This document shows positions 7,937 to 56,683 of a stretch of 64,000 nucleotides of DNA, piece after piece. The position numbers were made by a program, and so were the translations under genes. Location of the stretch: the NCBI GenBank assembly GCA_965221725.1, contig OZ244909.1, positions 2,629,925 through 2,693,924 of the forward strand, read 5' to 3'. The stretch comes from Gammaproteobacteria bacterium (lineage in GTDB: Bacteria; Pseudomonadota; Gammaproteobacteria; HK1). A model generated the notes under the pieces. It made no database searches, was not told the origin of the DNA, and worked only from the letters and a program-made list of their open reading frames with translations. The first letter of the stretch is position 1. Each line of letters begins with the position of its first letter.

Positions 7937-7962
7937 CCGGCATTGTAGACAGAATGCCGGCC

Positions 7963-9327: not shown

Positions 9328-9336
9328 TGCGAATGC

Positions 9337-39932: not shown

Positions 39933-40042
39933 TCCCGCCGTGCGCGGTGGCGAGCATGATCCGAGCCTGCGCCAGACCCGATGCGAGGTTCCTGCGAGCA
40001 CCCGCCGGCCTGGTAGTCATTGCATGCATTCCCGCCGCGCGC
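39852..40042. repeat. Imperfect tandem duplication, period 97 bp, covering the translation start and signal-peptide N-region of the OM protein gene
   Basis: GGCGAGCATGATCCG at 39852 and 39949; GCATGCATTCCCGCCG at 39925 and 40022. The copies encode MHAMNAESGGARRTFASGLAPTRIMLA and MHAMTTRPAGARRNLASGLAQARIMLA in different frames. Confidence 0.85.
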
Positions 40043-40158: not shown

Positions 40159-40944
40159 TCACCGGGCTCGCTTGAGCGCGTTGCGATCGAAGTCCCGGTC
40201 GGTGAGTCCGGTGTTCAGACGGTAGTCTTTCCACTCGATCCGGGTGCTCTTGCCGGTCCGGTCGTTCGCCATGTGCATCACGTCGGGACGCCAGAACCGG
40301 TCGAGATACTGACGGTAGCCTTCGATCGTGAGCGTCTTCAGCAGCGTATTCCTGCGATCGTAATACTCTGTCTTGACGATCCGCCAGATCTCCTGGTCGA
40401 TCCATACCACCTGGCGGGTGTATCCGGAGTGTTCGTACTGGGGGAAGTACTCCACCACCATGGTCTGCCTCCCATCGAGCTCTTCGTCGCGCAGCCACTT
40501 GTAGCGAAACTTGTCCACCTCCTGTGACGCAAGGTCCTCGTAGGCGAATTCGCTGCCCATGAACGACCCCGACTTGTTTCTCGACGAGATCCGCTTGACC
40601 CGCTTCAGCGCCGGCAGGTAGAGCCACTGGTCGTCCGGCTTCGTGGCATGCGTATGGCTCAGGAAGGCGGTGCCCTTCACATCCCGCGGGCTTTCGAACC
40701 GGGACAGGCTCTTGTCCCCGTCGCCCTCGACCTCCAGGGTGCTGATGCGAAGCTCGCGACGGCTTTCCTGTCCCTGCCGGTTGCGCAGGGTCATGACCAG
40801 ACTGGCGCGCTGGTCCTTCCAGCCGCTGTCCCGGCGTTCCATCTCCGTGACGATCGCCAGGCCCTTCTCCTCCGGTGTCTGCGCATGTGCGGCGGGCACC
40901 GGAGCGACGGTAAGCAGCACGATCGGCAGAAGTATCGTCTTCAC
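40159..40944 (-). CDS. Outer-membrane lipoprotein-sorting (LolA-like, DUF1329) periplasmic protein
   Basis: GTG start with GGAGG, signal peptide, FESPRDVKGTAFL, DDQWLYLPALKRVKRIS and SFMGSEFAYEDL. Confidence 0.88.
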   Translation of the reverse strand: MKTILLPIVLLTVAPVPAAHAQTPEEKGLAIVTEMERRDSGWKDQRASLVMTLRNRQGQESRRELRISTLEVEGDGDKSLSRFESPRDVKGTAFLSHTHATKPDDQWLYLPALKRVKRISSRNKSGSFMGSEFAYEDLASQEVDKFRYKWLRDEELDGRQTMVVEYFPQYEHSGYTRQVVWIDQEIWRIVKTEYYDRRNTLLKTLTIEGYRQYLDRFWRPDVMHMANDRTGKSTRIEWKDYRLNTGLTDRDFDRNALKRAR

Positions 40945-41045
40945 TCCAGGCCTCCTTCGACAATCTCGAGTGTGGCAGCCGGCGTGCGCGGGCCGCGGAG
41001 CGCTGAACGCGCCGCAAGCGCGTGGATAGCGGGGAGTGGCGCGAA

Positions 41046-42119
41046 TCATCTTCCGATGCCCGAAGCCGCTGCCTGCCCGACGCGGGGAAGACCACGAGCA
41101 AAAGCCGCGAAGAGGAGCTTCAGGGCCGAGTCCGAGCGCACCAGAGCGCTGGTGACGATAACGACGCCCTTTACGCTGGTGCGCGAGATCTTCACCTCCT
41201 GGCCGTTGCTGAAGTGCGGCGTGGCATGAATCCGGCGCAGCGTCAGAACTGCCATGCCCAGTGCCCACAGGCAGTGGCGGCGAATTCCCGTCTCGTGAGC
41301 AGGAATGAGCAAGGTATACCGCAGCGCGTTCGCAAGGTGCTGGCGCGCAACGGCCACCAGTTCGAAGAGTCCCTTCACGAACCTCGGATCCGCCTGACCC
41401 GGAGACAACGAACTCAAATCGAACCCGAAGGAGGAAAAGACGTCCCGCGGCAACCAGCAGACGCCACGTTCGTGATCGTCCCACATGTCCTTGAGTATGT
41501 TGGTCATCTGCAACCCCTGCCCGAAGGATGTGGCCAACGCAAGCATCTCCTCGCGTCGAGCGCGGATCTCATCGGAATAATCGCAGAACAGTTCCGTGAG
41601 CATTTCACCGACCACGCCGGCGACGTGGTAGCAGTAGCGATCCATCTCGGGAAGATCGCTCAGACCCTCCAGGCTTGCCTCCTGCTGGAATTCCGCCATC
41701 CCGCGTTTCATGGTGCGCACGCAGCGCTCCATGGCGGCGCGCTGTGCCGAAGAGAATCCGTGGGTGATCCTCACCACGCGGTCGATGTTCGCGACGAGAT
41801 CCCGCTCGCTGCGGGTTGTCGCTGGTGACAAGAGTGCGGTCAGCTCTCGCGCGAACGCTTCCACATCGTCTTCGTGACCTTCCACGATGGTGATGAAGCG
41901 CTGGAAGTATTCCTCTTTCAACCCCGGTGACAACGCGGGTTCGTCCTCGATGGTGTCGGCGATTCTGCAAAGCAGGTAGGCATTCGCTACCGCATCGCGT
42001 AACGGGTTTGGCAGTTGCGGGATGGTGAAGGCGAACGTGCGGGAGACACCCTGCAGGATGTCCGTCTGGTAGGCGAGATCCCGCCCATGCGACGCGGTGC
42101 AGGAAGTGGCATTGGCCAT
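41046..42119 (-). CDS. sqs: Squalene synthase (single-enzyme, farnesyl-diphosphate farnesyltransferase type)
   Basis: [39 protein letters not shown] and [12 protein letters not shown] (SQS signature); sterol-gene context. Start taken at MANATS. Confidence 0.85.
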
Positions 42120-42287
42120 GAGCTTTTCGTCGTGAGAGATGCTTTCCGGATTCCGAGGTGCGCGTGCCAGCGGCCTCCGCCGGAGGTTCTCGAATCCGGC
42201 CCCTTCCGGTGCGGGCAGACCGATGGTTTCACGCACGAAAGAATACAGTCAAGGCACAGCACCCGACAACACCGATCCTGGCGAGCG

Positions 42288-42316
42288 TTGACAGGTTCCG
42301 ACCGCATGGATAGGGT
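42288..42316 (+). promoter_or_regulatory. Candidate sigma70 promoter for the MMPL gene
   Basis: TTGACA (42288-42293)-17 bp-TAGGGT (42311-42316), 50 nt upstream of ATG 42366. Confidence 0.5.
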
Positions 42317-42365
42317 TCGCAGACCTCCGCCTTCGCGGAGACACCGATCGGGCGGATTCTGCGCC

Positions 42366-44681
42366 ATGTCATTGAAATCGGATTTTTTCGATCTGGTCGT
42401 AGGCCGGCACTGGTTGACGACATTCGCCACTCTGGTGGTGGTCGCGATCCTTGCGGCGGGGATGCAGTACCTGATCGTTGTCGATGTAGGCATCCGAAAT
42501 CACTTCAGTGGCGATGATCCGCATTTGGTCAAGCTGGAAAACTTCGAAGAAACCTATGCGGTATCCGACAGCGTCCTGGTCGTTGCCGCCCCACCGGACG
42601 ACACGGTTTTCACCCGCGAGACGTTGGGTGCAATCGAGCGATTGACAGAGGCGCTGTGGCAGACGCCCTATGCGACTCGTGTCGATTCGATCACCAACTA
42701 CTCGCATTCGGAAGGAAATGAAGAAGGCCTGGTAGTCGAACCGTTGGTCGACGATGCCGCCTTGCTTGATGATGATCAACTCGACCGGGTGCGAACGATT
42801 GCCCTCACCACACAGGATACGGCCGGGCGCTTCGTCTCTCTCGACGGGCGCCTGGCCGGGCTGATCGTCAGTCTCATACTTCCCGATGACGGCCGGGAGC
42901 AGAAAAAAGCCGAAGTGGTCGACGCTCTCTACGACCTCGTCGACGCGCAGAGCACAGCCAATCCCGAAATCGAATATCACATCTATGGCGAGTTGTTGCT
43001 TGATCAAACCATTCGGGAGGCGCTGAATGAGGACATGTCAGTCCTTGCGCCGATTGCGTTTGCGACGATGATGCTGGTTGCCATTCTGGTGCTGCGTTCG
43101 GTATGGGGCGTTCTGGGAATTCTGGTGATGTTGATCGCCGTGATGATATCCGGTTTCGGATTTGCCGGTTGGTTCGGATTGAAATTCTACGGCGAGAGTG
43201 GCGCGGCACTATTCGTGCTGATGGCGATTGCCGTCGCCCATTCAGTCCATCTGATTCAGGGGGTGATGAACGGAATGCGTAGCGGGATGGAACGCAAGGC
43301 TGCGACGATTCATTCGCTGCAGATCAATGCCCGCCCCATCTTTCTGACTTCCGTGACCACCGCAATCGGTTTTCTGAGTCTGAATTTCTCGGAGATGCCG
43401 CCTTTCCGGGTGATGGGCAACATCGTTGCTTTTGGCGCCATGTGCGCATTCGTCTATGCGGTCACGCTTCTGCCGGCTCTGCTGTCGATGATGCCCATGC
43501 GGGCACCAGCCATGAAAAAGGAGGGAGTCGAGTTCTTAGAGCATCTGGGAAATTTCGTGACTTCCAACGGCACCATCCTGCTCTGGATTTTTGCCATTTT
43601 GTCGGTGGTCAGCGCAATCGGGGTTTCGAGAATCGAGCTGGACGACAACAATCTCCAGTTGCTGGAAGAAAGCTACGAACTGCGTCAGTCTGCTGATTTC
43701 ATCAGCGAAAATTTTTCAGGACTGGATACATTCGAATATTCGCTGAGTTCCGGGCGCGAAGGGGGAATTACCGACGTCTCGTACCTGAATCAGGTCGATG
43801 CATTCGCTGATTGGCTCCGCGACCAACCAGAGGTTTCCCACGTCACTGCGGTGACCGATGTGCTGAAGCGGTTGAATCGGAATCTGAACGGCGATGTGGA
43901 CGGCTCCTATATCCTCCCGGAAAGCTCGGATCTTGCGGCGCAATATCTGCTTCTCTACGAGTTTTCTCTCCCGGTGGGACTCGATCTGAACAATCTCATC
44001 GACTTTGACCGTTCAGCGACTCGCATGACGGTCGTGGTTGAAGCGATGTCGGTTAGAGAACAAATCGAATTCGACGAACGAGCCTCCGCCTGGTTGCGGG
44101 AGAACGCACCACAGATCGGAACCGGAGCAACCGGAGTGACCATCGTCAGTGCCTATTCGGTGATGAGGAATATCGTCAAGATGCTGATTGGCACCGTCAT
44201 TGCGATGTCAATTGTCTCGCTCATTCTCGTTTTTGTTTTCAAGAGCGTGTGGCTCGGACTCCTGAGCTTGATACCGAACTTCCTGCCGGCCATCATGGCG
44301 ATGGGGGTTTGGGGATACACTGTGGGAACCGTCAGTGTCGCAGCGTCGATTGTGACCGCGATCGCATTCGGCATCATCGTGGATGACACCATTCACTTGT
44401 TGTCCAAGTACCTGAGATCACGTGGTGAGGGCAAGTCACCCACGGAGGCAATCGTGCCGACCTTCAAGCTCGTCGGGAGGCCGTTGTTGACCACCACCTT
44501 GATTTTCGCGCTGGGGTTTCTGGTATTCGGCGCGTCGGGGCTTGCGACCAATCAGACCCTTGGGGTGCTGGTGGGGCTCACGGTCGTCATCGCGCTGATG
44601 GCGGACTTCCTCCTCTTTCCCCCCCTGCTGGTAGCCCTTGACAAGACCAAAGCATTGGTGACTCGCACAGCGACGCATTAG
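42366..44681 (+). CDS. MMPL-family RND transporter (candidate sterol exporter)
   Basis: Two repeats of TM + periplasmic domain + 5 TM; motifs TTAIGFLSL and GIIVDDTIH. Divergent from sqs, convergent with the DHCR24-like gene. Confidence 0.9.
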   Translation: MSLKSDFFDLVVGRHWLTTFATLVVVAILAAGMQYLIVVDVGIRNHFSGDDPHLVKLENFEETYAVSDSVLVVAAPPDDTVFTRETLGAIERLTEALWQTPYATRVDSITNYSHSEGNEEGLVVEPLVDDAALLDDDQLDRVRTIALTTQDTAGRFVSLDGRLAGLIVSLILPDDGREQKKAEVVDALYDLVDAQSTANPEIEYHIYGELLLDQTIREALNEDMSVLAPIAFATMMLVAILVLRSVWGVLGILVMLIAVMISGFGFAGWFGLKFYGESGAALFVLMAIAVAHSVHLIQGVMNGMRSGMERKAATIHSLQINARPIFLTSVTTAIGFLSLNFSEMPPFRVMGNIVAFGAMCAFVYAVTLLPALLSMMPMRAPAMKKEGVEFLEHLGNFVTSNGTILLWIFAILSVVSAIGVSRIELDDNNLQLLEESYELRQSADFISENFSGLDTFEYSLSSGREGGITDVSYLNQVDAFADWLRDQPEVSHVTAVTDVLKRLNRNLNGDVDGSYILPESSDLAAQYLLLYEFSLPVGLDLNNLIDFDRSATRMTVVVEAMSVREQIEFDERASAWLRENAPQIGTGATGVTIVSAYSVMRNIVKMLIGTVIAMSIVSLILVFVFKSVWLGLLSLIPNFLPAIMAMGVWGYTVGTVSVAASIVTAIAFGIIVDDTIHLLSKYLRSRGEGKSPTEAIVPTFKLVGRPLLTTTLIFALGFLVFGASGLATNQTLGVLVGLTVVIALMADFLLFPPLLVALDKTKALVTRTATH

Positions 44682-46345
44682 TCGTCGGCTTTCTCTCTGA
44701 TTTCAGCGATCAACCAACTTTCCGGCATGACCTTGTCGTAAACCTCGGGGAAAGCATTTTCCGCCTCGTACTTGCGCCGCATGGCGCGGTAGTTGCCGTG
44801 TTCGAAGGTCTGTTCGAATTCATCGCGCGTCATGCAGAGATCGGCATAGAGCATCAAGTAGCCGCCACATTCACGTACGAACTGCTCAAGACGTCGAGTT
44901 GCCGGCACTTGATGGTAGTGACCAGTGGCGGCGCTTGGCGGAATACCGTAGATGCCGAGATCGACGAACATTTGATGGGGTGCACCCTTGGCTGGGTTGC
45001 GAAGAAAACCCTCATTGGCTCCGTGATCGAACAGCCTGACCGGACAGACCCATAGCGGATGAATGTCGAAGAGTTCGTCGCTGATGTGGATCGAGTCGGC
45101 GAGGCATTCGATAGGTATCAAGATATCGTGCGCGACACGATTTGCAAAAGCCTTTCGTCGCACATCCGGCGTCTGCGTCAGCTTCATGAGCGAGATCTTG
45201 GGTGCGCCCATCCATGCCCACAGATAGCGGTACCACACAGAATTGGCGAAGCCGATGAGATCCTTGATCTGAAAAAAAACGGAGGGTGTATGACGGTGGA
45301 AGTAATGGCGAGCTGGAATGTAGTCGGTGAACTTTCCAATTTCTAGACTTTGCGCAGCATGGCTGTAAAACCAGGGTTTATGAAACCTGTTGATGTGATT
45401 GACGCGTACTCCGGGGGGAGGGGAGGCGAATTCACCCTTCAGGATGACGCCCGAGTTTTCGGAAAATATCAATCCCTCGATAAAGCGGGGAGCGTTGGGA
45501 TCGGCGGTAAGTTCTTCCAGTCGGGCACAAAAACCTTCCAGAGAGTGAAATGGCTCGTAATTGAGCTTGACGTGCGGTTGAATTGGCACAATGCGTAACT
45601 CGACCGCTACGAGGAACCCCAACGTACCATGCGACCAGGGTAGCGCGTGGAACAGATCGGCGTTTTCTTCACGCGTGGCTCGAATCAGTTCGCCATTGGC
45701 AACGACGACCTCGAATGCCTCGACCGTTTCGTGCAGAAAACCTTCGCGATGGCTTGTGGTTTCGATGCCGACACCCATGCAGAGTCCGCCCAGTGTCAGG
45801 TCGTCCATCTCCGCCAGAACGGTGAGCGCGTATCCTCTGGGGACGAGAAAATGCGTGATATCCCCCATTGTCACCATCGGTTCGGCGCGCACGATGCCCC
45901 GTACTTCATCCACTTCCAGAACATTGCGGAGATCGATGTGCACCTGATGCATGCTTTCCTTAAAGTCCGGGTTGCGCGGTGTCATCGACTTCCAGGGCTT
46001 GCGTGCCGTGCACATGCGCTTTCCACTGGCATAACCGTCCCGGACTTGCGACTGAATCGCGCGTACGGCGGCGGCATGCCTGGCGTCGGTGTTCCGGAAA
46101 GTGCGATAGAACCACTTGCCAAGATCTTCAATCTTTTGGTAGACGAAGCTGGCCGGCACCGCGAAGCCCGCAATGACGAACTCACGGTGGTGGAACATGA
46201 AATCGGTGAAGGACTTCGGGACCTTCATCACATCAATGTACTCCCTGTCGAAATCTGCTGTTTTCCCCGACTCTGAGTCAGCCCGGAAAACCGCTAATCC
46301 CGAATACAGGGAGGTCTTGTCGCACGGGGAAGTTAATTTTTTCAA
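44678..46345 (-). CDS. Delta24-sterol reductase-like FAD oxidoreductase (DHCR24/DWF1 family)
   Basis: RMCTARKPW, VRAEPMVTMG, LTLGGLCMGVGIETTSH, FHALPWSHGTLGFL, YFHRHTPSVF, PLWVCP and AFPEVYDKV. Start is TTG 46345 (TTGA overlap) or ATG 46228. Confidence 0.88.
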   Translation of the reverse strand: MKKLTSPCDKTSLYSGLAVFRADSESGKTADFDREYIDVMKVPKSFTDFMFHHREFVIAGFAVPASFVYQKIEDLGKWFYRTFRNTDARHAAAVRAIQSQVRDGYASGKRMCTARKPWKSMTPRNPDFKESMHQVHIDLRNVLEVDEVRGIVRAEPMVTMGDITHFLVPRGYALTVLAEMDDLTLGGLCMGVGIETTSHREGFLHETVEAFEVVVANGELIRATREENADLFHALPWSHGTLGFLVAVELRIVPIQPHVKLNYEPFHSLEGFCARLEELTADPNAPRFIEGLIFSENSGVILKGEFASPPPGVRVNHINRFHKPWFYSHAAQSLEIGKFTDYIPARHYFHRHTPSVFFQIKDLIGFANSVWYRYLWAWMGAPKISLMKLTQTPDVRRKAFANRVAHDILIPIECLADSIHISDELFDIHPLWVCPVRLFDHGANEGFLRNPAKGAPHQMFVDLGIYGIPPSAATGHYHQVPATRRLEQFVRECGGYLMLYADLCMTRDEFEQTFEHGNYRAMRRKYEAENAFPEVYDKVMPESWLIAEIREKADD

Positions 46346-48360
46346 GCAGGCAGTTCGTGCAACCGATTCGCAATATGGACTTTCAGCTTTTCGGACACCG
46401 ACAAGGTAGGAAAAGGACTGATTTTCAGTTTGTAGTTGCCGGGGATCGGAGAAAAATCAAAATAATAAGCAATCATCAGCATGGTAACGATCATCTGCAT
46501 GTTCATCCAATCGTACCCCACGCACATGTGGGTACCCAGCCCATACGGGGCGTATCCGTAACTCCGGTGCTCCTTGCGTGGCAACAGATAACGATCGATA
46601 TCGAATTTGAAAGGATCCGGAAAACTGTCACTCATGTAATGTGCTGCGGTTTGCATGATGTGTACCCGTTCCCCTAGCGGCAGTGCGTAGTCTTCCACCA
46701 CGCAGGAATTCGCCACATTTCGAACCTGCATGCTGACAACGGGATACATTCGCAGGCACTCCATGAGAAAACGAAGTGTCACGTCATAGTTTTCCGGGAT
46801 GAACTTCTCCCTGTCGGGATTGCCGTTATCGAAAATTGCGGTTGCCTCCTCCCGAATTCTCGCCGCAAGCTCCGGGTGTCTGGCCATCTCGAAAAGTGCA
46901 AATCCGAGGAGATCACCGACGTAGATACTTTGAAGTATTGGTGCGGCTGCCAGCATGAAGGGGAGGTTCTGCTCCGGCAGAAATTGCGGGTCACTGCTGT
47001 GCAGGCTGATGAGATCGTCCGCCAATTCTCGGACTGCTCCCGCCCGCTGGAAGGGCGTATGGCTTTGCTCTATTCGTCGCACGAAGGTACCGAGAAGTCC
47101 GAAACGTTTCTTCATGGCTGGAGTGCGGGCCATGAATTTCGGCATGATATGTCCGACATAACAGTTGGATGCCGTTTCCTTCCATTTCACCAATTCCTCG
47201 AAGATGTCCTGCGTGTCCGTGCTGACGGTAATCATGGTCATTTGCATATTGATCATCAGCCGAGTATCGCGCTTTACATCGATCTCCGAGTTATTTTGCC
47301 ACTTTCGGTTCGACATGAACTGTCGGGTCAGCCGACATATGTCGTCCAGTCTTTCGTTGAATTTGTCCGTTGAGTAGACGCCTCTCATCACTTTGCGAAG
47401 TCGGAAGTGATCAGCACCATCCAGGGACGTGATCAAACCTTGTGCGCCACAGGCCTGCTCCAGCTCACGAAAATAATTCCCGGAAGTCAGGTACATTCGA
47501 GCATTTCTATGTATCCATCGATTCGCCTTTTCTCCCGCCACAAAAGTCATTGGTTTCTGAAATGGTAGTCCTATCTGGAAAACCGGGCCGTATTGCTCGG
47601 TTATACTTGCAAATAACGCGGGAATGTTGCCATTCCAGAGATGCCGGTTCGACAGAAATTTCTTGATGGAAACTCTGGGAATTTTCTTTCTCAGAGGTGT
47701 GCTTTGTAAAGTAGGCGCGATAATTGTCTGTTCGACGCCGGAAGCAATTGTTCGATTAATCAACTCTACTTTGCAAATCCACTCGATTCGATCTTCCGTT
47801 TCCTTGTCCAGATCAAAAATAAAGCGAACGACATCACATGCATTCAAAAGACCGATAATAAGTGAATCTCGCGGATTGGGTATGATATCCGCGAAGAGCA
47901 CTTCTCCAATTCTTTCCTTGATGTACAGACCTGCGGGATCCTGGATGGCGTATTCCCTTAGTTCCGCATGCCAATCGGAGTAGTTCATTGTGTAGAACCC
48001 TCCATCATGGTGCTGCAGAATTCCCATTCGGACCAAGCGCTGCAATGAGGTATCAATGATGGTTTCCGAATGAACCGCAAGCCGCTCTATCCAGTAACGC
48101 GCTTCCTGCGAACCGGAATGAGACGCAATCTCTTCCAGGCACAGATCCAGAACCGAATCGCCTGTTTTGGTCGAATCGATCAGGAAAAGAGATTTTTCAT
48201 CCGTATCAATGCGTGATTTCAGGGAGAGGTCCGCCAGAACTGCCCCGATGAAGGCACAGTTCAGGGTCCAGCCTTCTACTTGATAGAAATATCCGGTCTG
48301 ATCGTTGAGAAGCATCACAACGAGTTCCTCCGGAACATTCAGCGCATACTTCGAGGTCAT
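46342..48360 (-). CDS. GPP34 (GOLPH3-like) domain - cytochrome P450 fusion protein
   Basis: The N-terminal ~205 aa (EELVVMLLNDQTG...GAVLADLSLKSRIDTD...TKTGDSVLD...WIERL...LQRLVRMGIL) fit the GPP34 pattern. The C-terminal P450 has ExxR (ECLR), DPFKFDIDR and heme motif YGLGTHMCVG. Confidence 0.8.
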   Translation of the reverse strand: MTSKYALNVPEELVVMLLNDQTGYFYQVEGWTLNCAFIGAVLADLSLKSRIDTDEKSLFLIDSTKTGDSVLDLCLEEIASHSGSQEARYWIERLAVHSETIIDTSLQRLVRMGILQHHDGGFYTMNYSDWHAELREYAIQDPAGLYIKERIGEVLFADIIPNPRDSLIIGLLNACDVVRFIFDLDKETEDRIEWICKVELINRTIASGVEQTIIAPTLQSTPLRKKIPRVSIKKFLSNRHLWNGNIPALFASITEQYGPVFQIGLPFQKPMTFVAGEKANRWIHRNARMYLTSGNYFRELEQACGAQGLITSLDGADHFRLRKVMRGVYSTDKFNERLDDICRLTRQFMSNRKWQNNSEIDVKRDTRLMINMQMTMITVSTDTQDIFEELVKWKETASNCYVGHIMPKFMARTPAMKKRFGLLGTFVRRIEQSHTPFQRAGAVRELADDLISLHSSDPQFLPEQNLPFMLAAAPILQSIYVGDLLGFALFEMARHPELAARIREEATAIFDNGNPDREKFIPENYDVTLRFLMECLRMYPVVSMQVRNVANSCVVEDYALPLGERVHIMQTAAHYMSDSFPDPFKFDIDRYLLPRKEHRSYGYAPYGLGTHMCVGYDWMNMQMIVTMLMIAYYFDFSPIPGNYKLKISPFPTLSVSEKLKVHIANRLHELPA

Positions 48361-48420: not shown

Positions 48421-51400
48421 TCAGACGGAAGCCAGCTCGATCCGGGGTGGTATCGTGTCTGTGGTGCTACCGGTGTTAGCGAGATTCTCCATTCGGCTCC
48501 GGCGGCGTTGCTCGTAGAGACCAAGAGCGTGCAGAGGAAAGTACTGCCGATAGAGGACATAGTCCAGAAGTGCGGTTCGGAAGAACACCCCTGCCATGTC
48601 CTGCTTGGGCCATGTTCCGTCGGGGCGTTGCATGTCGAGCAGGAAGTGGGCGCCGTGCGAAATCGCGGTCCAGTTGGATTCTCCCGCCTCGATGAGCGCG
48701 ATCAGCGCCCATGCGGTCTGGATCACCTGGCTTTCCTCGTGCTGAACGTATCGGCCGGTCAGGCATCCGCTGTGGTGCTCGCCCCATCCGCCGTCTTCCC
48801 GCTGGCGCCCCAGCAGCCAGTGACAGGCCGAACGAAGCGCCGGATCGCCGGGCTGGACCCCGGCGGCGAGGAGACCTCTGATCCCGAAGAGGGTGCCGTA
48901 AATGAACTGAATTCCCCATACGCCGCGCCACGATCCGTCTCTCTTCTGGGTTCGACGAAGCCAGACGGCAGCCCGAGAGACGGCTCTGGAGATAATATCC
49001 GTCATTATATCATCCGCTATCTCCGGCACATGCTCTCGACAAGCCGAGAGTGCCGCCAAGCAGGACCCCGTACATTCGACGAAGGAGTGCTCGGTCATCG
49101 ATTCGCCGAACATTTCGGCCGGGTTCAGCCACTCCAGACCGACGAGCGAGCGTCGTGCCTCGTAGCTGCCAAAGCCGCCATCGCGGTTTTGGCGGCGCAA
49201 CATGAACCTGACCGCTTCGCTCAGCGCGGCCGGATTCGATCTACCGCGTCCGGCGGCGACGATTCCGAGCACCGCCTCTGCGGTACAGTCGCTCACCGGC
49301 CACCCATGCCATCCGCCGGGGAAACACCAGCCGCCTTTGGGATCGGACCGATAGGCATCGCGGAATCCGTCGAAGCTGGTGCCGATCTGCTCTCTGAGCA
49401 GGAATTCGGCGCCGCGCTCAAGGGCATCCCGAGCCCCGTCGAACGTGGGAACCTCAGCCAGCGCCTGCAGCGCGAACCCGCTGTCCCATGAGGCACTTCT
49501 CGCTCCGGTGACACGCGCCCCCTGCTCCTCATCCTCCCAGATCCAGCCGTCCATTCGCGCCAGTGCCTGGTCGAGGTCGGCATCGTCCGGATCGCGCAGC
49601 CACAGGGCAAGCATGTTGAGAAGACCGCTGACTGGAGAGATGCTCGTATGATCGGTGGTCCGCAGCTCCCATTTGATCTGTCGGAGGATCTCTTCGGTGC
49701 ATCGGGCGCGCAAGCGCTCGCCGTGGAAGCGGTCTAACAGCCGCGCGAATCCGTACCCCGCCTTGAGCCACACACTCGGCCGCGCGAACAGATCCGCCTC
49801 CCGCAGGCACCCGCGGGCAGCGGAGAAATCCGCGCTGGCGAATCCTCGGGGGAACAGCTCTTCGCGTAGCGACGCGATCAAGGGGGTGACGGGCGCCTGG
49901 AACCGGTGCGCATAGATCACCGCCATCGCCATGTAGATGAGCCGCGTATGGCAGTACCAGTTCGAGGGGTGCAAGGGGACCCAGCGCGGCAGGCCCCACA
50001 GTTCCGGCAGGATGGCGTTGACTCCACGCCAGTCGTAGAGGTTGAGGAGCGCGAGCCAGAATTTCCCCCAGCTCGGAATCCCGATAATTCCTTCGGCCTG
50101 TATGAATCGAAGGGCCGGCCCGACCAGAGGGTCGTCTCGTTCGACGCCAAGCGACCGTGCCGCGACGTACACCAGCGCGGTGACGAAGAGCTGGGGCGGC
50201 GAGTGCTCGTGCATGCCCCACGCTCCCCCTTCGAGCCGACTCTGTTCGAAGAAGCGAAGCACATGCCGACGCCGGGTGGGTTCGAGCGGACGGCCGATGA
50301 TATGGTGCAGCAGCACATATTGCGCGGTCAGCATGGGACACCAGACCATCTCGCCCTCCCAGCCTCCGTCCTTGCTCTGAAGACTCAGAAGGCGATCGGC
50401 CGCGCTGCGCAATGCCGGACCGGCATCGGGCGATTCAACCTCCTTCGGCCGGTCGGACCTGGAGGCAACTCTCTCCGAGGCCATGGAGTGCAGAAACGCG
50501 CGGGCAAGATTGTACCGTACGCTCTCTTCCCTTTCCTTGCGCCCGGCTCTCACCTTGCGCAATTGCAGGGCCCCGCACATGAACCACCAGATACGGACGG
50601 TGAGCGCACGGAAGACGGTACTGAACCGATGCAAGGTGAGGCGGGGGGGACGGGACAGTGAAACTTCCCTGGCCAGTGCCCGGATCGCGGTTCCGGAAAA
50701 AGCGAGACTCATGCCGGCCACGGATCGGTCTTCGCATGCGAGGATCCGCGTGGTTCGATCGCGGTACCGAGCACTTGTCCGCCACCCCATATAGACGGCG
50801 TGTCGTAGTGCGTGCGCCTCGGCTCGATAATCGGCGAAGACTTCGTAGAGCCCCATGGCGAGCAACTCCGGCATGTGGGTATCCCGGAGCCGCCGGTTGG
50901 TGAAGTCGCGAAAGCTCTCGCTCTCGGCGAGGGCAAGCGCATCGCCGAAACCCAGGGTCATGCCGACCGCAGTCATGGGATGGTAGTGCCCGGCCGCGTC
51001 ACCGATCAGTACTCGATGCGAGTTCCCGTAGGCAGCGCGCGGCCGGAGTTGATTGGCCGCAAAGTGGAACTGCCTTGCCCGAATTGCTTCGACGAACTTC
51101 GATCTGAGCGCCTCCGGCATGAGATCGGCATAGGATTCCGTCAGAAAACCGACCCGGTCCCGTTTTGCCCAGCAATCCAACGGAACATCGATGATGATTC
51201 GGACGCAGCCATCCGCCACACTGTACGCGAGCACCGGGCCTGGTCCGCCGAGCAGTACATGGCCCTGGCCCTCGAAGGGCAAGTTCCCCCCCGTCAACGT
51301 GACCCCGACCATTCGCGAACAGTGAATGGGGTCTGTCGACAGCCCGAGCGATCGACGCACGGTCGAAGCCCGGCCGTCGGCGCCGACGATTCGCGCCGCG

Positions 51401-51873
51401 TTCAGGGTGTGCAAGGCGCCGTTGCAGCTATAGGTCAGCCGCTGGTCTTCAACCGCGGTGACCCGTGCCCTGGTGACAAAATCTATCGCCGCCTCGTCTT
51501 CGATGGCTTCCCGCAACTTCGAGACGAGCAACGTATGCTCGCATACCAGACCCTGGGAGCCTTTGGGGTAGGGAAGTGCGATCGGTTCCGATCCGTCTTC
51601 CGGGAACACCACGAATCCATTGCCGGCGGCGCTGCGGGGCAAGGTGTCGAGATCGATCCCGAGGTTACGCAGTATCCGCACGGCCGGCGGATGCAGCCAT
51701 TCGCCCGCCATGCGCTCGGCCGCCTTGGGGTTCGCCTCCAGCAGAGCGACGCGAGCGCCTCTTTGCGCGTGGGCCAGTGCACACACGTTCCCCACCGGCC
51801 CCGCGCCGACGATGACCACGTCGTAACACCGCGAAGCGGCGCCGTTCTCGGGAAGATGTCCGGCCGTGTTCAA
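48421..51873 (-). CDS. osc: Squalene epoxidase - oxidosqualene cyclase fusion (~1150 aa)
   Basis: FAD domain: VIVGAGPVG, GEWLHP and GDAAGHYHPMTAVGM. Cyclase: QW repeats (QSKDGGW, QNRDGGF, QKRDGSW, QREDGGWGE, QRPDGTW) and the OSC catalytic DCTAE (49276-49290). True start taken as TTG 51873 overlapping the cyp51 TGA. Confidence 0.92.
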   Translation of the reverse strand: MNTAGHLPENGAASRCYDVVIVGAGPVGNVCALAHAQRGARVALLEANPKAAERMAGEWLHPPAVRILRNLGIDLDTLPRSAAGNGFVVFPEDGSEPIALPYPKGSQGLVCEHTLLVSKLREAIEDEAAIDFVTRARVTAVEDQRLTYSCNGALHTLNAARIVGADGRASTVRRSLGLSTDPIHCSRMVGVTLTGGNLPFEGQGHVLLGGPGPVLAYSVADGCVRIIIDVPLDCWAKRDRVGFLTESYADLMPEALRSKFVEAIRARQFHFAANQLRPRAAYGNSHRVLIGDAAGHYHPMTAVGMTLGFGDALALAESESFRDFTNRRLRDTHMPELLAMGLYEVFADYRAEAHALRHAVYMGWRTSARYRDRTTRILACEDRSVAGMSLAFSGTAIRALAREVSLSRPPRLTLHRFSTVFRALTVRIWWFMCGALQLRKVRAGRKEREESVRYNLARAFLHSMASERVASRSDRPKEVESPDAGPALRSAADRLLSLQSKDGGWEGEMVWCPMLTAQYVLLHHIIGRPLEPTRRRHVLRFFEQSRLEGGAWGMHEHSPPQLFVTALVYVAARSLGVERDDPLVGPALRFIQAEGIIGIPSWGKFWLALLNLYDWRGVNAILPELWGLPRWVPLHPSNWYCHTRLIYMAMAVIYAHRFQAPVTPLIASLREELFPRGFASADFSAARGCLREADLFARPSVWLKAGYGFARLLDRFHGERLRARCTEEILRQIKWELRTTDHTSISPVSGLLNMLALWLRDPDDADLDQALARMDGWIWEDEEQGARVTGARSASWDSGFALQALAEVPTFDGARDALERGAEFLLREQIGTSFDGFRDAYRSDPKGGWCFPGGWHGWPVSDCTAEAVLGIVAAGRGRSNPAALSEAVRFMLRRQNRDGGFGSYEARRSLVGLEWLNPAEMFGESMTEHSFVECTGSCLAALSACREHVPEIADDIMTDIISRAVSRAAVWLRRTQKRDGSWRGVWGIQFIYGTLFGIRGLLAAGVQPGDPALRSACHWLLGRQREDGGWGEHHSGCLTGRYVQHEESQVIQTAWALIALIEAGESNWTAISHGAHFLLDMQRPDGTWPKQDMAGVFFRTALLDYVLYRQYFPLHALGLYEQRRRSRMENLANTGSTTDTIPPRIELASV

Positions 51874-53279
51874 CTGAATACACTCGGTTGCGCGCGGCGA
51901 CGGTAGGACACCCGGCACGGTGTCACTGGTCCTGTTACCCAGGTCCCGTAGTTCGGGGCAGGAAACTCCACCATCGGTTCGAAATCGAAGCGGTCGAGCA
52001 AGACCGTCCAGATCGCCTTGAGTTGCATCACGGCAAATTTCTCCCCCATGCACCGATGCTTCCCCCCGCCAAAGCCGATCAGGGTGTAGTGGTGCTGCTT
52101 GCCCTCGCTCCGGGGGGGGGCGAACCGCTCCGGATCGAAGCGTTCCGGATCGGCAAACACGTCGGACAGGCGATGCGACACCGCCGGAGAGATCATGGCC
52201 AGGGTCCCGGCCGGCACGGTGTGACCCGCATACTGCAACGATCGACGCACCTTGCGGACCAGCACGATCAGCGGCGGGTGCAGGCGCTCGCACTCGCGCA
52301 CCGTGCATTCGAGTGCCGTCTGCTTCTTGAGGCTCGCGAGACTCATGGCGCCTTCCTCTGCGTAGACCTCACGCATTTCGCCGCGGATCCGGGCTATCCA
52401 GTCCGGCGCACGGAACATCTCGAGCCCCATCCAGCTCGCAAGCACGGCGCTGGTATGCTGGCCGGCAAACAGCACTGTCAGCAAAAGCCCGATAATCTCG
52501 TCTTCGCTCAAGGCCCGACCATCCTTGTAACGGGCCTGCATGAGTGCCTGCATGAAATCTTCGGCTACGGTACCGGCCTCCCGGCGCCTCCTGATGATTC
52601 CGCCGAGGATCTCCGCAATCTTGCGTCGGGCCCGGTCACGTTTTCGATGCGCCGGGATAGGCAACCTCGGGAAGAAGAACCCGAGGAGGTTGATGCCCTC
52701 CTGTAGATCGTGATAGGCCTCGGCGAACCCCGAGTCCACCTGATCGCGGACTTCCTGGCCAAGCAGGCTGCGGCTGGCGATGTTGACGGTGAGCTTGTTC
52801 AGCGCCACCGGCAGGTCGATGGTCCCCTCCTCTCCGAGCGCATCGGCAAACCGACTGGCTTCGTCGTGCATGATGTGAGCATAGTTGCGCATCGGCGCGT
52901 CTCGCAGCGCCGGATACAGCAATGCCAACTGCTCCGCCATGACCTCGGGCGCGACATCGTAGGCGACACCACGTCCGAAGACGGGCACCGTGAACTGGTA
53001 GACGGCCCTGGCATCAAGCTGGTCCGCCGGCGCCCGGAAATAGCAATCGTGGGCCTCCAGCCCCGCAAACAGCACAAACCGGCGGGGGCCGAGCCTGAAG
53101 CTGACAAGCTCACCGTGTTCATGCTGGCAACGGTCGAGCATGGCTACCGGATCCTTTTGAAACTCCGGCAGGTGGCCGAGCAACGGCCAGCCACCGGAGA
53201 GTTCCGGAATCGATTTCCCCGTCGAGGAGGCGGACTGCGCTGAGCGCAGAGGCACTGCGATGTCGGACCGATTTGCCAT
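51870..53279 (-). CDS. cyp51: Sterol 14alpha-demethylase
   Basis: YQFTVPVFGRGVAYD (SRS1), LFAGQHTS (CYP51 I-helix), ECERLHPP and GFGGGKHRCMGE. Start taken at MANRSD. Confidence 0.93.
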   Translation of the reverse strand: MANRSDIAVPLRSAQSASSTGKSIPELSGGWPLLGHLPEFQKDPVAMLDRCQHEHGELVSFRLGPRRFVLFAGLEAHDCYFRAPADQLDARAVYQFTVPVFGRGVAYDVAPEVMAEQLALLYPALRDAPMRNYAHIMHDEASRFADALGEEGTIDLPVALNKLTVNIASRSLLGQEVRDQVDSGFAEAYHDLQEGINLLGFFFPRLPIPAHRKRDRARRKIAEILGGIIRRRREAGTVAEDFMQALMQARYKDGRALSEDEIIGLLLTVLFAGQHTSAVLASWMGLEMFRAPDWIARIRGEMREVYAEEGAMSLASLKKQTALECTVRECERLHPPLIVLVRKVRRSLQYAGHTVPAGTLAMISPAVSHRLSDVFADPERFDPERFAPPRSEGKQHHYTLIGFGGGKHRCMGEKFAVMQLKAIWTVLLDRFDFEPMVEFPAPNYGTWVTGPVTPCRVSYRRRAQPSVFS

Positions 53280-53287
53280 CTCTGTTC

Positions 53288-54400
53288 TCAATAGACAAAG
53301 GGGACCAGCGACCAGGGCACGCGCTTTCGGTAGCGCCCCCACAGCTCCCCGTACTTGGCGCGGCAGCGCCGCTCATCACGGCGCGCACGATGCCACAACA
53401 AACTTGCAAGCCACGCCGGCAACAGGAAGGGGATCCAGGACGCAAAACTGGTGGTCAGCACGAACGCGAGGTAGATGCAGATCTCGCCCGTGTAGTTGAG
53501 ATGTCGTGCGATCCCCCAGAACCCGGATACAAGCAGGCGCCCGTCGAGAGCTTGGGCGGGTTTGCCCCAGATCGTGATGGACGGGTCACGCTTGAAGCGA
53601 TGCTTTTGCCCGTTGGCGCCTCGGAACAACCAGAAGCCGAGCACGTACAGGAGCATGATCGCGACGGCCGCGAAAGGGCTCAACGGGGGACCGGATGCGT
53701 CGACCAGCCACCAGCCAGCGATGCAGTAGAAGAAGGGCACGAGCACGTAATCACCCCAGACGAGCATCCACCCGAAACGCTCGCTGACGATGTCCCAGGT
53801 ATGGATCATTCCGCCCTCGAACAGGAAGTAATTCAGTATGTACGCTATCGTCAGGAGCTGGTATAGGGCCATCGCCAGGGTCAGGTGGCCGTAGGTTTCG
53901 TATTGCACCACCGCGAAAGAAGCATTGAACAATGCCAGCCCGATGAGGGACGGGCGGTAGCTGAACAGCTTGAGATCGACCCCGAACCAGGCAGGGTTGA
54001 GTTCCACGCCGTAGAAGGCCCCGCGCCAGAATCCCGGCGGAGATTCGGTCTGCTCTCGGAGCTGCTTGCGGGTGCCTTGCCAATACAGCCAGCCGGAAAT
54101 CGCGAACGCGAACAGGTTTGCAGCCACGAAGAGCGCGAAGAAATGCGTATACAGGGACGACAGGGAGAACACGTCCAAGACCTGTGCAATGCCTGCCACC
54201 AGCGCGGTGAGCAGCAGCAGCGTCAGGCCGTTGAGCTTGTAGGTGACCGATATTCCGCCGAGGTCCGGCCCCTTGACCCGGCGCCCCGGCAGGAGCGCCG
54301 AGCCCACGAACAAGGCCCCGATGAAGACGGCTGTCATCACCGCCGCCTCGATCAGCAGCCCGCCCGAAAGGGGGGGGATCGGCAGAGGCAGATTAGGCAT
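53288..54400 (-). CDS. ERG4/ERG24-family sterol reductase (probably Delta14-reductase)
   Basis: YKLNG, GVELNP, DIVSERFGWMLVWGD, VPFFY, ANGQKHRFK, LLVSGFWGIARHLNYTGE and HRARRDERRCRAKYG. Confidence 0.9.
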   Translation of the reverse strand: MPNLPLPIPPLSGGLLIEAAVMTAVFIGALFVGSALLPGRRVKGPDLGGISVTYKLNGLTLLLLTALVAGIAQVLDVFSLSSLYTHFFALFVAANLFAFAISGWLYWQGTRKQLREQTESPPGFWRGAFYGVELNPAWFGVDLKLFSYRPSLIGLALFNASFAVVQYETYGHLTLAMALYQLLTIAYILNYFLFEGGMIHTWDIVSERFGWMLVWGDYVLVPFFYCIAGWWLVDASGPPLSPFAAVAIMLLYVLGFWLFRGANGQKHRFKRDPSITIWGKPAQALDGRLLVSGFWGIARHLNYTGEICIYLAFVLTTSFASWIPFLLPAWLASLLWHRARRDERRCRAKYGELWGRYRKRVPWSLVPFVY

Positions 54401-54410
54401 CGGTGTTTCC

Positions 54411-55532
54411 TTATGCGACCTCTGCCACCGCCGGTTCGGGGCTCGGCACCGCGCTCTTCTTCTCCCTGTCCAGATACTCCTGCCACTTGCGCACCGTCAC
54501 ATGCTGAAACGCAGGCACCACCCGGTTGAATTCGAGGGTACGGGCGTCCCAGTGCTGCTCATACCCCTCCTGTTCGGCTTCCAGCGCGAACCCGTCCTCG
54601 CAGAGCAGCGGACCGATGAGCACCCGGTTGGAGATCCTCATCACCACGTCCATTGCGAACCGGGGGATATGTATCGGCACCAGCGGGATCTTCAGGGACT
54701 TGAAATAGAACAGAAAGAATGCCCGCGTGGTGCGCTCGTTGATGGGCAGGACGAAGAGCCAGTGCTTGATCGCCTCATCGGTGTTCGACCACTGGTAGGG
54801 ATATTCGTAGCAGAGCTTCATCGAATTGGTGTCGATTCGGTTGCGATCGACGAACAATCCGGAAATGCGGCCGCGACCGACGCTCGTGTCGTAATCGACA
54901 TGCACGTTGTCGCCGATCGTCTCGCATCTCGTGAGCTGGGCGCCTTCGAACGGACGGTAGCGGCGGTGCAGCCAGGCGTGACTGAAGTCGCTGACGTTGT
55001 CGATCACCATCGAGTGGTGGGCCGACCAAGTGAAATTCAGTGGTACACAGGCCCACCGACCGGGACCTTCAAGCTCGGGAATCTCGGGAATACGGCGTAT
55101 TTCGGCGAGTTCCGGATTCCCGGGAAACATCCAGACCAGTCCGTAGCGCACTTTCACGGGATAGGTTCGGATGGAGACGTCCGGCAAGCCTCGCTCGGGG
55201 AGTTCGTGTGCGGCTTCGGCCAGCTTTCCGTCCGGACCGTACTTCCATCCGTGGTAGGCGCATACGAGCCGGCAGCCCTCTACCGCGCCGATTGAAAGCT
55301 TTAGCTGGCGATGTGCGCAGCGATTGTCCATGGCGTGAAACGAACCATCCGTGGCCCGAAACAGCGCAATCGAGTGCTTCCAGAAAATGACTTCGACGAC
55401 GGTCCCCGGCTTCATGTTGCGCACTTCCTCGACCGCATACCAGTAGTCGGGATCCATACCCGTGGCACGCACCTTCTGGCGTAGGTTGCTGGCTTCCTCG
55501 AAGCCGGGCGGACGCGATGATACGGGGGTCAT
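54411..55532 (-). CDS. sdmA: Rieske-type sterol C4-methyl oxygenase (SdmA-like)
   Basis: Rieske CAH...CAYHGW, mononuclear Fe DNVSDFSHAWLH...ED, and YPYQ...HWLFVLP..ERTTRAFF. Resembles Methylococcus SdmA as recalled; paired with an SdmB-like gene. Confidence 0.82.
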   Translation of the reverse strand: MTPVSSRPPGFEEASNLRQKVRATGMDPDYWYAVEEVRNMKPGTVVEVIFWKHSIALFRATDGSFHAMDNRCAHRQLKLSIGAVEGCRLVCAYHGWKYGPDGKLAEAAHELPERGLPDVSIRTYPVKVRYGLVWMFPGNPELAEIRRIPEIPELEGPGRWACVPLNFTWSAHHSMVIDNVSDFSHAWLHRRYRPFEGAQLTRCETIGDNVHVDYDTSVGRGRISGLFVDRNRIDTNSMKLCYEYPYQWSNTDEAIKHWLFVLPINERTTRAFFLFYFKSLKIPLVPIHIPRFAMDVVMRISNRVLIGPLLCEDGFALEAEQEGYEQHWDARTLEFNRVVPAFQHVTVRKWQEYLDREKKSAVPSPEPAVAEVA

Positions 55533-56683
55533 GACGCACCTCCATCGGCTGTCATGTGTGGATGAGAGTCCGGCGCGGCATCCTCCGCCCGAGCTTTGCC
55601 GTTCGCACGGGGGAGGGGCTTCTTTGCCCGCGGATTGGTGATCGCCTTGCGCTCATGATAGTGGAACGCATACGCCTCGTGCACGGCGGCACGGATGGTC
55701 GTCGGCTGGTAGCCGAGTTCCCGTTTCGCCTTGTCCAGGTTGGCGTGACGGCACTTTTGCAGGAGCCGGATGGCGCCTGGTGTGAGTCGCTGGGGAAAGT
55801 CCGGGTGGAACCGGCTGAGATAGAAACTCGCCGCCTCCGAAAAGACATACATCAGGCCGGCTGGCATCCGCCGCCGAGGCCGCGGTTGTCCGGAGACCTC
55901 CTCGTACAGGTTCAGCAGATCGGAGATGGTCTTGTATTCGGTGCTGAAAATATATTTTTCGCCGGATCGGCCACGGTGCATGCAAAGCACATGTCCCGCG
56001 ACGATGTCCCCGACGGCAACGAACTCGAAGCCGCCATCGACGTACGCACGCAGCTTCCCGTTCGTGTAGTCGCACAACGTCCTTCCAAGACGCGACGGAG
56101 AGAAATCCGCGCCTCCGACGACTGCGCAGCAGGTTGCGACGACGATATCCTGCCCCTTCGCTGCGGCATGCCAGCATTCGTGCTCGACGAGCGACTTGCT
56201 TCGCTCGTAGGGCATCGTGCGTTCCATTGGATAGAACGGCATCGTCTCGTTGCTGGGAGCGGAAGGATTGTCCGGATCGTAGCCGACGGCGCTGAACGAG
56301 CCGGTGACCACCACCCGTCCGGCGTCCACTTCCCGGGCCGCCAGCAGCACGTTGCGGGTGCCGAGGACGTTGCACTCGAAGATCTCGCGTTGATGAGCGC
56401 GATTGCCCTCGATCGTGGAGATCTTTGCCGCGACATGATAGACGCCCCGGCAGCCCTTGATTGCACTCCGGGTGGCGTCAAGGTCCCGGAGATCACCGAA
56501 GGCGCGCTCCACTTCCAGACCTTCCATCGCCTGATTGTTGCTCTCGGGCCTCAGCAGCACGCGCACGCGAATACCGTCGGCGAGCAGGCGACGCACGAGG
56601 TTGGCGCCCACATGTCCGGTCGCACCGGTCACGAAGACTGGGGGTTCGGCCGAGTGGTGGATCTTGTTCAGCTCTGATTTCAA
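55529..56683 (-). CDS. sdmB: NAD(P)-dependent SDR, sterol C4 decarboxylase/3-ketoreductase (SdmB-like)
   Basis: VTGATGHVGANLVR, GDLRD, YxxxK (YERSK) and SRLGRT...LRAYV.GGFEFV; ATGA overlap with sdmA. Confidence 0.8.
   Translation of the reverse strand: MKSELNKIHHSAEPPVFVTGATGHVGANLVRRLLADGIRVRVLLRPESNNQAMEGLEVERAFGDLRDLDATRSAIKGCRGVYHVAAKISTIEGNRAHQREIFECNVLGTRNVLLAAREVDAGRVVVTGSFSAVGYDPDNPSAPSNETMPFYPMERTMPYERSKSLVEHECWHAAAKGQDIVVATCCAVVGGADFSPSRLGRTLCDYTNGKLRAYVDGGFEFVAVGDIVAGHVLCMHRGRSGEKYIFSTEYKTISDLLNLYEEVSGQPRPRRRMPAGLMYVFSEAASFYLSRFHPDFPQRLTPGAIRLLQKCRHANLDKAKRELGYQPTTIRAAVHEAYAFHYHERKAITNPRAKKPLPRANGKARAEDAAPDSHPHMTADGGAS

Follow-up and report, generated by a model that had tools for sequence, protein, structure and literature searches.

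A GPP34-P450 fusion with a rebuilt I-helix as a candidate accessory sterol-tailoring enzyme

Which reaction might a cytochrome P450 (P450) catalyze when the acid-alcohol pair at the usual O2-activation site of its I-helix has been replaced? The question is raised by a gene in a 64,000-nucleotide stretch of contig OZ244909.1 (assembly GCA_965221725.1) from a Gammaproteobacteria bacterium, hereafter the window, where a GPP34 domain and a P450 domain are joined in one polypeptide encoded within an operon of sterol genes. The initial annotation of this locus had noted the missing pair by eye and had proposed an unusual reaction such as double-bond isomerization, desaturation or C-C cleavage. On the sequence comparisons reported here, the change in the I-helix would be a selectively maintained rebuild of the O2-activation segment in one clade of GPP34-P450 proteins. 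Our tentative first choice, held at somewhat less than even confidence, is that the fusion is an accessory sterol-tailoring heme-thiolate enzyme that performs an O2-dependent but atypical sterol oxidation with rewired proton delivery. An O2-independent isomerase or peroxide-type activity would rank second, and a non-catalytic role third.

The I-helix and its O2-activation segment

The I-helix residues 474-496 read PILQSIYVGDLLGFALFEMARHP and are encoded by positions 46873..46941 of the minus strand; the interval first singled out, with its upper bound at 46955, takes in residues 469-473 as well. Between the I-helix anchors P474 and F487 there is no (D/E)(T/S) dipeptide, and the acid-alcohol pair is absent whichever register is used. 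This part of the initial annotation holds, as does its statement that the heme ligand and the ExxR motif are intact: C613 and E534/R537 are invariant in 61 aligned homologues, as are P605, L608, H611 and G615 of the heme loop and R590 in FDIDRY, the PERF-like meander Arg. The two anchors are 13 steps apart in the window protein versus 14 in canonical relatives.

The register within the segment needs more care. Anchoring on the C-terminal side places A-G-x-D-T on L-Q-S-I-Y, as the initial annotation did, and a single-sequence phmmer alignment against CYP51 gives the same result. A profile-profile alignment of the close family (A1) with 40 canonical relatives (A2) matches A-G-x-D to Q477-S478-I479-Y480 and places a gap at the Thr, which is thus deleted. 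When the family profile is aligned with M. capsulatus CYP51, A-G-H-H-T is paired with Q-S-I-Y-L, with the Thr at residue 481. The two profile-based alignments therefore agree on A-G-x-D and differ solely in the position of the one-residue gap. Two transitional relatives, P0127 and P0131, have an I-helix that reads A-G-H-Y-T-G. Because the profile alignments and these transitional sequences concur, the acid position is most likely taken by Tyr480 and the Thr position by Val481, whose counterpart is Leu in most homologues, and the register chosen by eye was probably one residue off. The transitional sequences also suggest the order of events, in that replacement of the acid by Tyr and loss of one residue would have come first and loss of the Thr later.

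The rebuilt segment is conserved to a degree that chance would not produce; conservation was a check that the initial annotation had named for its proposal. Among 121 homologues at 52-92% identity, Y480, G482 and D483 are present in all and S478 in 119. The same motif, S/A-x-Y-x-G-D, is found in 82 of 82 main-clade genes from the window and 80 related loci, the latter being the best 80 of 476 confirmed relatives from a scan of GTDB genomes. In a neighbor-joining tree of P450 domains, the shortened non-canonical sequences all fall into a single clade that lies among canonical fusions. More distant relatives recovered with the P450 domain, either fused (~660-690 aa) or stand-alone (~450 aa) and 24-32% identical, nearly all have a canonical AG(L/M/I)DT or AGxHT together with one extra I-helix residue. 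The relationship to the canonical fused and stand-alone relatives is one of homology over both domains (hhalign probability 100%, 657 columns, 28% identity), and the difference lies in their AG(L/M)DT pair and the extra residue, which the window protein lacks. Within the clade, the deep members P0134 and P0137 carry Asn where other members have Tyr. The invariance of the motif and its confinement to a single clade indicate a single origin followed by strong purifying selection, exactly at the usual O2-activation site. The ancestral A-G-x-D-T would have become (A/Q)-S-x-Y-(L/V)-G-D, with one residue lost. We found no published description of a P450 in which a Tyr takes the acid position and the I-helix is one residue shorter, and the rebuilt motif with its deletion and single origin appears to be new.

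An alignment artefact, with the pair present but misaligned, or a pseudo-enzyme drifting neutrally would be trivial explanations of these observations. The one-residue error of the register chosen by eye and the dependence of gap placement on the method are what such an explanation could draw on. However, an acid-alcohol dipeptide appears in none of the registers, more than 10 phyla share the invariant segment at 50-92% overall identity, the open reading frame (ORF) is intact and the AlphaFold2 (AF2) model is confident. We regard artefact or decay as extremely improbable.

Two further sets of sequences depart from the canonical pair. P0217 (711 aa) and P0235 (738 aa) also lack it (VNSFTY and VNSIMY, respectively) and have extra C-terminal length; they form an independent lineage apart from the SxYxGD clade in the tree. 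In locus L061, a second, tandem GPP34-P450 paralogue (7734-9758, plus strand) adjoins the main-clade copy; its I-helix reads PYIQALDPIAGT, with the acid retained and the Thr replaced by Pro.

The overall fold is that of a P450. The AF2 model of the 672-aa protein, built on the homologue alignment, has a pLDDT (predicted local distance difference test) of 86.3 and a pTM (predicted template modeling score) of 0.82, and Foldseek matches the P450 part to P450 BM3 and CYP51 with a target-normalized template modeling score of ~0.8 (E 2e-14). The protein is thus predicted to be a heme-thiolate P450 that binds heme via Cys613. NCBIfam holds no model specific to the GPP34-P450 fusion, and gave weak generic P450 matches only.

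The sterol operon and the related loci

The minus-strand gene order in the window is SdmB, SdmA, ERG4/ERG24, CYP51, squalene monooxygenase-oxidosqualene cyclase (SQMO-OSC), GPP34-P450 and a DHCR24-like gene. Sixty nucleotides separate the oxidosqualene cyclase (OSC) stop from the fusion gene, an AGGA sits ~11-14 nucleotides 5' of its ATG, and the listed start of the downstream ORF overlaps its stop. The last gene of the series encodes a FAD_binding_4 oxidoreductase that we take to be DHCR24-like, from its presumed likeness to human DHCR24.

The CYP51 gene in this operon is canonical and complete, with YQFTVPVFGRGVAYD, FAGQHTS and FGGGKHRCMGEKFA accounting for all CYP51 signatures. Therefore, the possibility that the fusion is the 14-demethylase of the cluster was rejected, and the fusion would be free for a non-standard step. 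The fusion nevertheless resembles CYP51 in several respects: among solved structures, CYP51s score best in sequence comparison (profile E 1e-24 to M. capsulatus CYP51), its context is a sterol pathway, and a His stands two residues ahead of the Cys ligand. In contrast, identity to CYP51 is ~16-25%, below the 40% family rule, and 15-17% in structural alignments to CYP51 chains. The match is also far weaker (E 1e-15 to 1e-24) than that of the neighboring gene (E 5e-107). The B'-helix signature Y-x-x-(F/L)-x-x-P-x-F-G-x-x-V-x-(Y/F)-D is absent from the fusion, which reads YFRELEQACGAQGLITSLDG instead, and the I-helix A-G-Q/H-H-T-S is absent as well, whereas CYP51 proper is encoded 3.5 kb upstream.

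Sterol-type surroundings recur in the related loci, at least one sterol-type neighbor being present in 72 of the 80. All 80 come from metagenome-assembled genomes (MAGs), their sponge-symbiont status being taken from dataset names or taxa. They span more than 10 phyla, with Alpha- and Gammaproteobacteria (including Ca. Poriferihabitaceae and Arenicellales), Chloroflexota, Latescibacterota, Nitrospirales, Gemmatimonadota, Acidimicrobiales, Binatia and Thermodesulfobacteriota among the taxa represented. Copies close to that of the window (55-72% identity) are accompanied by SQMO-OSC in 15 loci, a count that includes some 51-52% copies, and adjoin a BstA-like MMPL transporter in 24. Around more distant copies (50-53%) the neighbors are a KshA_C-type Rieske oxygenase (43 loci), a Sterol_MT_C sterol methyltransferase (42), an amine-oxidase-like flavoprotein (33), and either an MMPL transporter with sterol-sensing domain (MMPL/SSD; 25) or AcrB (16). 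ERG24, SdmA and SdmB lie near the gene in 8-10 loci each, and a canonical CYP51 is present in five. In Nitrospirales, Binatia and Thermodesulfobacteriota the gene is found inside complete clusters with OSC, CYP51, ERG24, SdmA/B and sterol methyltransferases, and the same-strand layout of the window recurs in L001, L039, L048, L059, L061 and L063. Many other clade loci have no OSC within 10 kb, but a sterol methyltransferase, a KshA-type Rieske protein and RND pumps instead. The conserved role of the clade is therefore broader than one gap in the pathway of the window.

An RND pump is found within 10 kb of the gene in 66 of 81 places (65 of the 80 loci and the window itself), and within 1.5 kb in 50. 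These neighbors belong to three lineages, namely BstA/HpnN-like MMPL proteins, a second MMPL/SSD type and AcrB. Even the deeper non-canonical members P0123 and P0124 (37-39% identity) adjoin an AcrB-type pump, one of the two loci also having a KshA-type Rieske gene close by, whereas none of four sampled contigs with canonical or transitional relatives shows a sterol or RND context. The comparison suggests that the rebuild of the I-helix and recruitment to sterol and RND clusters go together. The systematic embedding of the clade in such clusters, beside a normal CYP51, appears to be a second new feature.

The constancy of the pump also fits a different role, in which the fusion would be a largely non-catalytic heme protein, a sterol-binding, hand-off or sensing module docked by GPP34 at the inner membrane that feeds or gates the RND transporter. 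The RND pump is the most constant neighbor and is drawn from three lineages, the catalytic pair is lost, and eukaryotic GPP34 domains bind lipid or membrane (PMC11706023). However, the Cys ligand, the ExxR motif and the heme-propionate His are strictly conserved, and a new invariant motif at the catalytic site exceeds what a carrier would need. We consider such a module improbable.

A conserved module of five genes consists of an amine-oxidase-like flavin adenine dinucleotide (FAD) protein, a KshA_C-type Rieske protein, GPP34-P450, a sterol methyltransferase and an MMPL/SSD transporter. It is seen in L034 (7266-15720) and in ~40 similar loci (e.g. L029-L036, L050-L058 and L064-L077) of Chloroflexota and other symbionts, where no OSC lies within 10 kb. 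This arrangement looks like a unit for sterol uptake, modification and export, whose Rieske protein might oxygenate or desaturate sterol rings. The SQMO-OSC fusion, for its part, is shared by 15 related loci of several phyla, with 57-75% identity. Sterol genes and GPP34-P450 are 50-80% identical in amino-acid sequence across more than 10 bacterial phyla, a pattern that indicates widespread horizontal exchange of the complete module between the symbiont MAGs.

Proton delivery and candidate reactions

We hypothesize that the fusion is a cytoplasmic, membrane-associated enzyme whose GPP34 domain docks it to the membrane or to lipid. In its oxygen groove a hydrophobic residue would stand at the Thr position, Ser478 where the groove Gly normally sits, and Asp483 one turn further on. 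Proton delivery to the iron-bound oxygen could then be rerouted through a Tyr480/Asp483 dyad and Ser478, or with help from the substrate. With protons rerouted, a cycle that depends on O2 and ferredoxin would end differently, much as lack of the acid alters it in CYP114, and the sterol product would then be handled by the adjacent RND system.

CYP114 acts in bacterial gibberellin biosynthesis, where its conserved lack of the acid is needed for ring contraction, a skeletal rearrangement, although the enzyme stays O2- and ferredoxin-dependent (PMC10293830). The likeness is a functional analogy, a P450 acting on a polycyclic terpenoid without the conserved acid; CYP114 differs in that it keeps the Thr, has Ala in place of the acid, and shows neither a deletion nor a GPP34 domain. 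With this precedent, the conservation of the feature throughout the clade and the presence of a separate CYP51 in the operon, the proposal of an unusual reaction gains weight. It stands in part only: a Thr/Ser and an acid at the groove would speak for an ordinary enzyme, and the invariant S478, Y480 and D483 lie within two turns of the helix. Since these residues are near the groove, the enzyme may have a relocated proton relay and ordinary O2-dependent chemistry.

Several points weigh against an atypical O2-dependent sterol oxidation. Tyr480 and Asp483 would lie on the same helical face (i, i+3), a relay that is drawn from helical geometry. No ferredoxin or reductase gene was seen adjoining the fusion gene, the co-encoded CYP51 likewise being without one. 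The context of the related loci was read within 10 kb on either side, and the contrast with canonical relatives comes from four contigs. Lastly, many characterized P450s in which both members of the pair are lost (CYP74, CYP8A1 and CYP152) use neither O2 nor electrons.

This last point leads to the possibility that the P450 no longer activates O2 and acts as an isomerase or rearranger of a pre-oxidized sterol (hydroperoxide or endoperoxide); it might move a nuclear double bond, for instance from Delta8 to Delta7. In CYP74 (allene oxide synthase/hydroperoxide lyase), CYP8A1, CYP5A1 and CYP152 the pair is lost or replaced, and these enzymes bypass O2 activation. The window protein has neither acid nor alcohol and carries a hydrophobic residue at the Thr position, and its one-residue deletion should regularize the I-helix bulge that forms the O2 groove. 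With their Asn, P0134 and P0137 are reminiscent of CYP74 and CYP8A, which have a catalytic Asn in the I-helix. No Delta8-7 isomerase or C-5 desaturase was recognized in six sterol clusters mapped gene by gene, their unlabelled ORFs not having been scanned with Pfam.

Other features argue against an O2-independent enzyme. The heme loop has standard spacing, without the typical CYP74 insertion; invariant Ser, Tyr and Asp residues are still in the groove region; and there is no sign of a peroxide-generating partner. The clade is equally conserved at loci without a nearby OSC, where the neighbors stand for side-chain methylation and Rieske oxygenation, not nuclear isomerization. The likeness to CYP74, CYP8A1, CYP5A1, CYP152 and CYP255 is a functional analogy only, confined to the lost or replaced pair and the retained thiolate heme. 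The fusion lacks the CYP152 Arg-Pro as well as the CYP74 insertion, and its replacement residues are different: the catalytic Asn of CYP74/CYP8A is Tyr in the window protein, and Asn occurs only in the two distant clade members. None of these five families was among the 60 top solved-structure matches listed. CYP255 itself has a Gln-Glu pair at the I-helix position and behaves as a peroxygenase (PMC11842817). On balance we judge an O2-independent isomerase unlikely, though it is the alternative to be taken most seriously.

Going beyond the atypical oxidation proposed above, the SxYxGD-clade fusion might be a previously unrecognized sponge-symbiont sterol enzyme whose non-monooxygenase or otherwise atypical chemistry is mechanistically coupled to RND export of the product towards the host. 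It might shift a nuclear double bond, desaturate the sterol or rearrange it, and in the clusters examined no other enzyme for such a step was recognized. With all its parts taken together, this extended proposal is a speculation that we rate as doubtful.

A published hypothesis assigns the protein an altogether different function. GPP34_L, the combination of GPP34 and P450, was reported to be exclusive to sponge symbionts from 16 phyla and among the most widespread symbiont-specific proteins of sponge microbiomes, and was read as a phosphatidylinositol 4-phosphate (PI4P)-binding symbiosis factor against phagocytosis (PMC11706023, Microbiome 2025). The window protein, with PF05719 and PF00067 in a single polypeptide, has this architecture and is a member of the group; it is 50-92% identical to hundreds of such MAG proteins from many phyla, and both domains are present in all but one of 120 homologues among the matches listed. 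The GPP34_L study contains no description of the I-helix and no link to sterol genes, both of which were found here. A eukaryote-like effector that binds PI4P and disturbs phagosome maturation in the sponge, with the P450 domain as an accessory, would agree with the architecture and the restriction to sponge symbionts described there (PMC11706023), and with the origin of all 80 loci from MAGs, many of which have sponge-dataset names or belong to taxa like Poriferihabitaceae. However, inspection of the N-terminus showed no signal peptide and no obvious secretion signal, and the gene lies within sterol operons and RND modules.

The GPP34 domain itself also bears on this hypothesis. Its match to Vps74 is weak (E 0.002), with only residues 7-102 aligned. 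In this sole alignment two of the PI4P-contact residues of Vps74, which we take to be W88, R97, K178 and R181, have no counterpart, W88 lying in a stretch that the query lacks and R97 standing opposite E29. The fused GPP34 domain may thus not be PI4P-binding, and we consider a PI4P effector very improbable.

The window and the wider meaning of the family

The coordinates of the fusion gene, its motifs and its neighbors are collected in Table 1. The ORF listed for SQMO-OSC (48421-52308) is over-extended by ~135 codons at its 5' end, the true start being near 51.9 kb; the first ~150 residues of its 1295-aa translation look like out-of-frame GC-rich sequence, and this over-extended start masked the CYP51 gene. 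Sequence words of GPP34-P450 occur in five runs of unspecified library type and in none of the listed RNA runs.

Table 1. Coordinates of the GPP34-P450 gene, its domains and motifs, and neighboring genes in the window
Feature	Coordinates	Strand	Remarks
GPP34-P450 fusion gene	46342..48360	-	672 aa, translated ORF; ATG at 48360, TGA at 46342-46344
GPP34 (GOLPH3/Vps74-like) domain	47782..48333	-	N-terminal, residues 10-193; Pfam PF05719, E 5e-24
P450 domain	46363..47667	-	~residues 232-666; Pfam PF00067, E 4.5e-30
I-helix	46879..46974	-	residues 463-494; continuous helix in AF2 model, pLDDT block means 87-97
Remodeled O2-activation core	46912..46932	-	Q477-S478-I479-Y480-V481-G482-D483 in place of A-G-x-D-T-x-x
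Codons of the core	Q477 46930-32; S478 46927-29; I479 46924-26; Y480 46921-23; V481 46918-20; G482 46915-17; D483 46912-14	-	
K-helix ExxR	46750..46761	-	E534/R537
Heme-binding loop	46516..46548	-	P605-YGLGTHMC613VG615; standard spacing, insertion absent
SdmB-type sterol C-4 demethylation reductase	55529..56683	-	NF052578, E 8e-89
SdmA-type Rieske 4-methylsterol monooxygenase	54411..55532	-	NF052579, E 1e-120
ERG4/ERG24-family sterol reductase	53288..54400	-	candidate C-14 reductase, E 7e-73
Canonical CYP51 (sterol 14alpha-demethylase)	51870..53342	-	E 5e-107 versus M. capsulatus CYP51, full length
SQMO-OSC fusion	48421..51900	-	TIGR03463 osq_cycl, E 2e-220
FAD_binding_4 oxidoreductase	44678..46345	-	candidate sterol Delta24-reductase, directly downstream of GPP34-P450
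MMPL/RND transporter	42015..44681	+	sterol-sensing-domain signature, HpnN/BstA-like; convergent with the downstream end of the operon
LolA-like protein	40159-41484	-	
457-aa protein	38628-40001	-	no family match

BstA, which the MMPL transporter at the end of the operon resembles, is treated in PMC10942540. The LolA-like protein accompanies a BstA-like MMPL protein in at least 13 related loci and the 457-aa protein does so in at least seven; both are candidates for sterol carriers of the periplasm or outer membrane, as counterparts of BstB and BstC. Directly upstream of sdmB lies a DDE transposase (DDE_Tnp_1 and an associated N-terminal domain; 56763-57887, minus strand), and its position at the operon edge is consistent with the apparent mobility of the cluster between phyla. 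Further away, positions 1616-26653 form a defence island with a Type ISP restriction-modification enzyme, a BREX BrxL Lon-like protease, a SIR2-like protein adjoining a HerA helicase, and an Abi/AAA protein. Very large ORFs without assignment (1263 and 1148 aa) are also present there.

Bacterial sterol pathways, to our knowledge, still miss enzymes for several nuclear steps. No searchable paper joins GPP34, P450 and sterol, and neither P450 nor CYP51 appears under that name in the paper on sterol methyltransferases in sponge symbiont clusters. The embedding in sterol and RND clusters, the coexistence with CYP51 and the rebuilt site offer a concrete alternative function for the main clade of GPP34-P450 proteins, with S478, Y480 and D483 as defined mutational targets. 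If the extended proposal with coupling to RND export is correct, the most widespread 'symbiosis-specific' protein family of sponge symbionts would be concerned with the supply or modification of sterols, not with PI4P mimicry. Sponge symbionts have been discussed as a source of unusual sterols, which bears on the use of sterane biomarkers as evidence of early animals (PMC10070321), and the clade would then represent a bacterial route to unusual sponge sterols that is relevant to these biomarkers.

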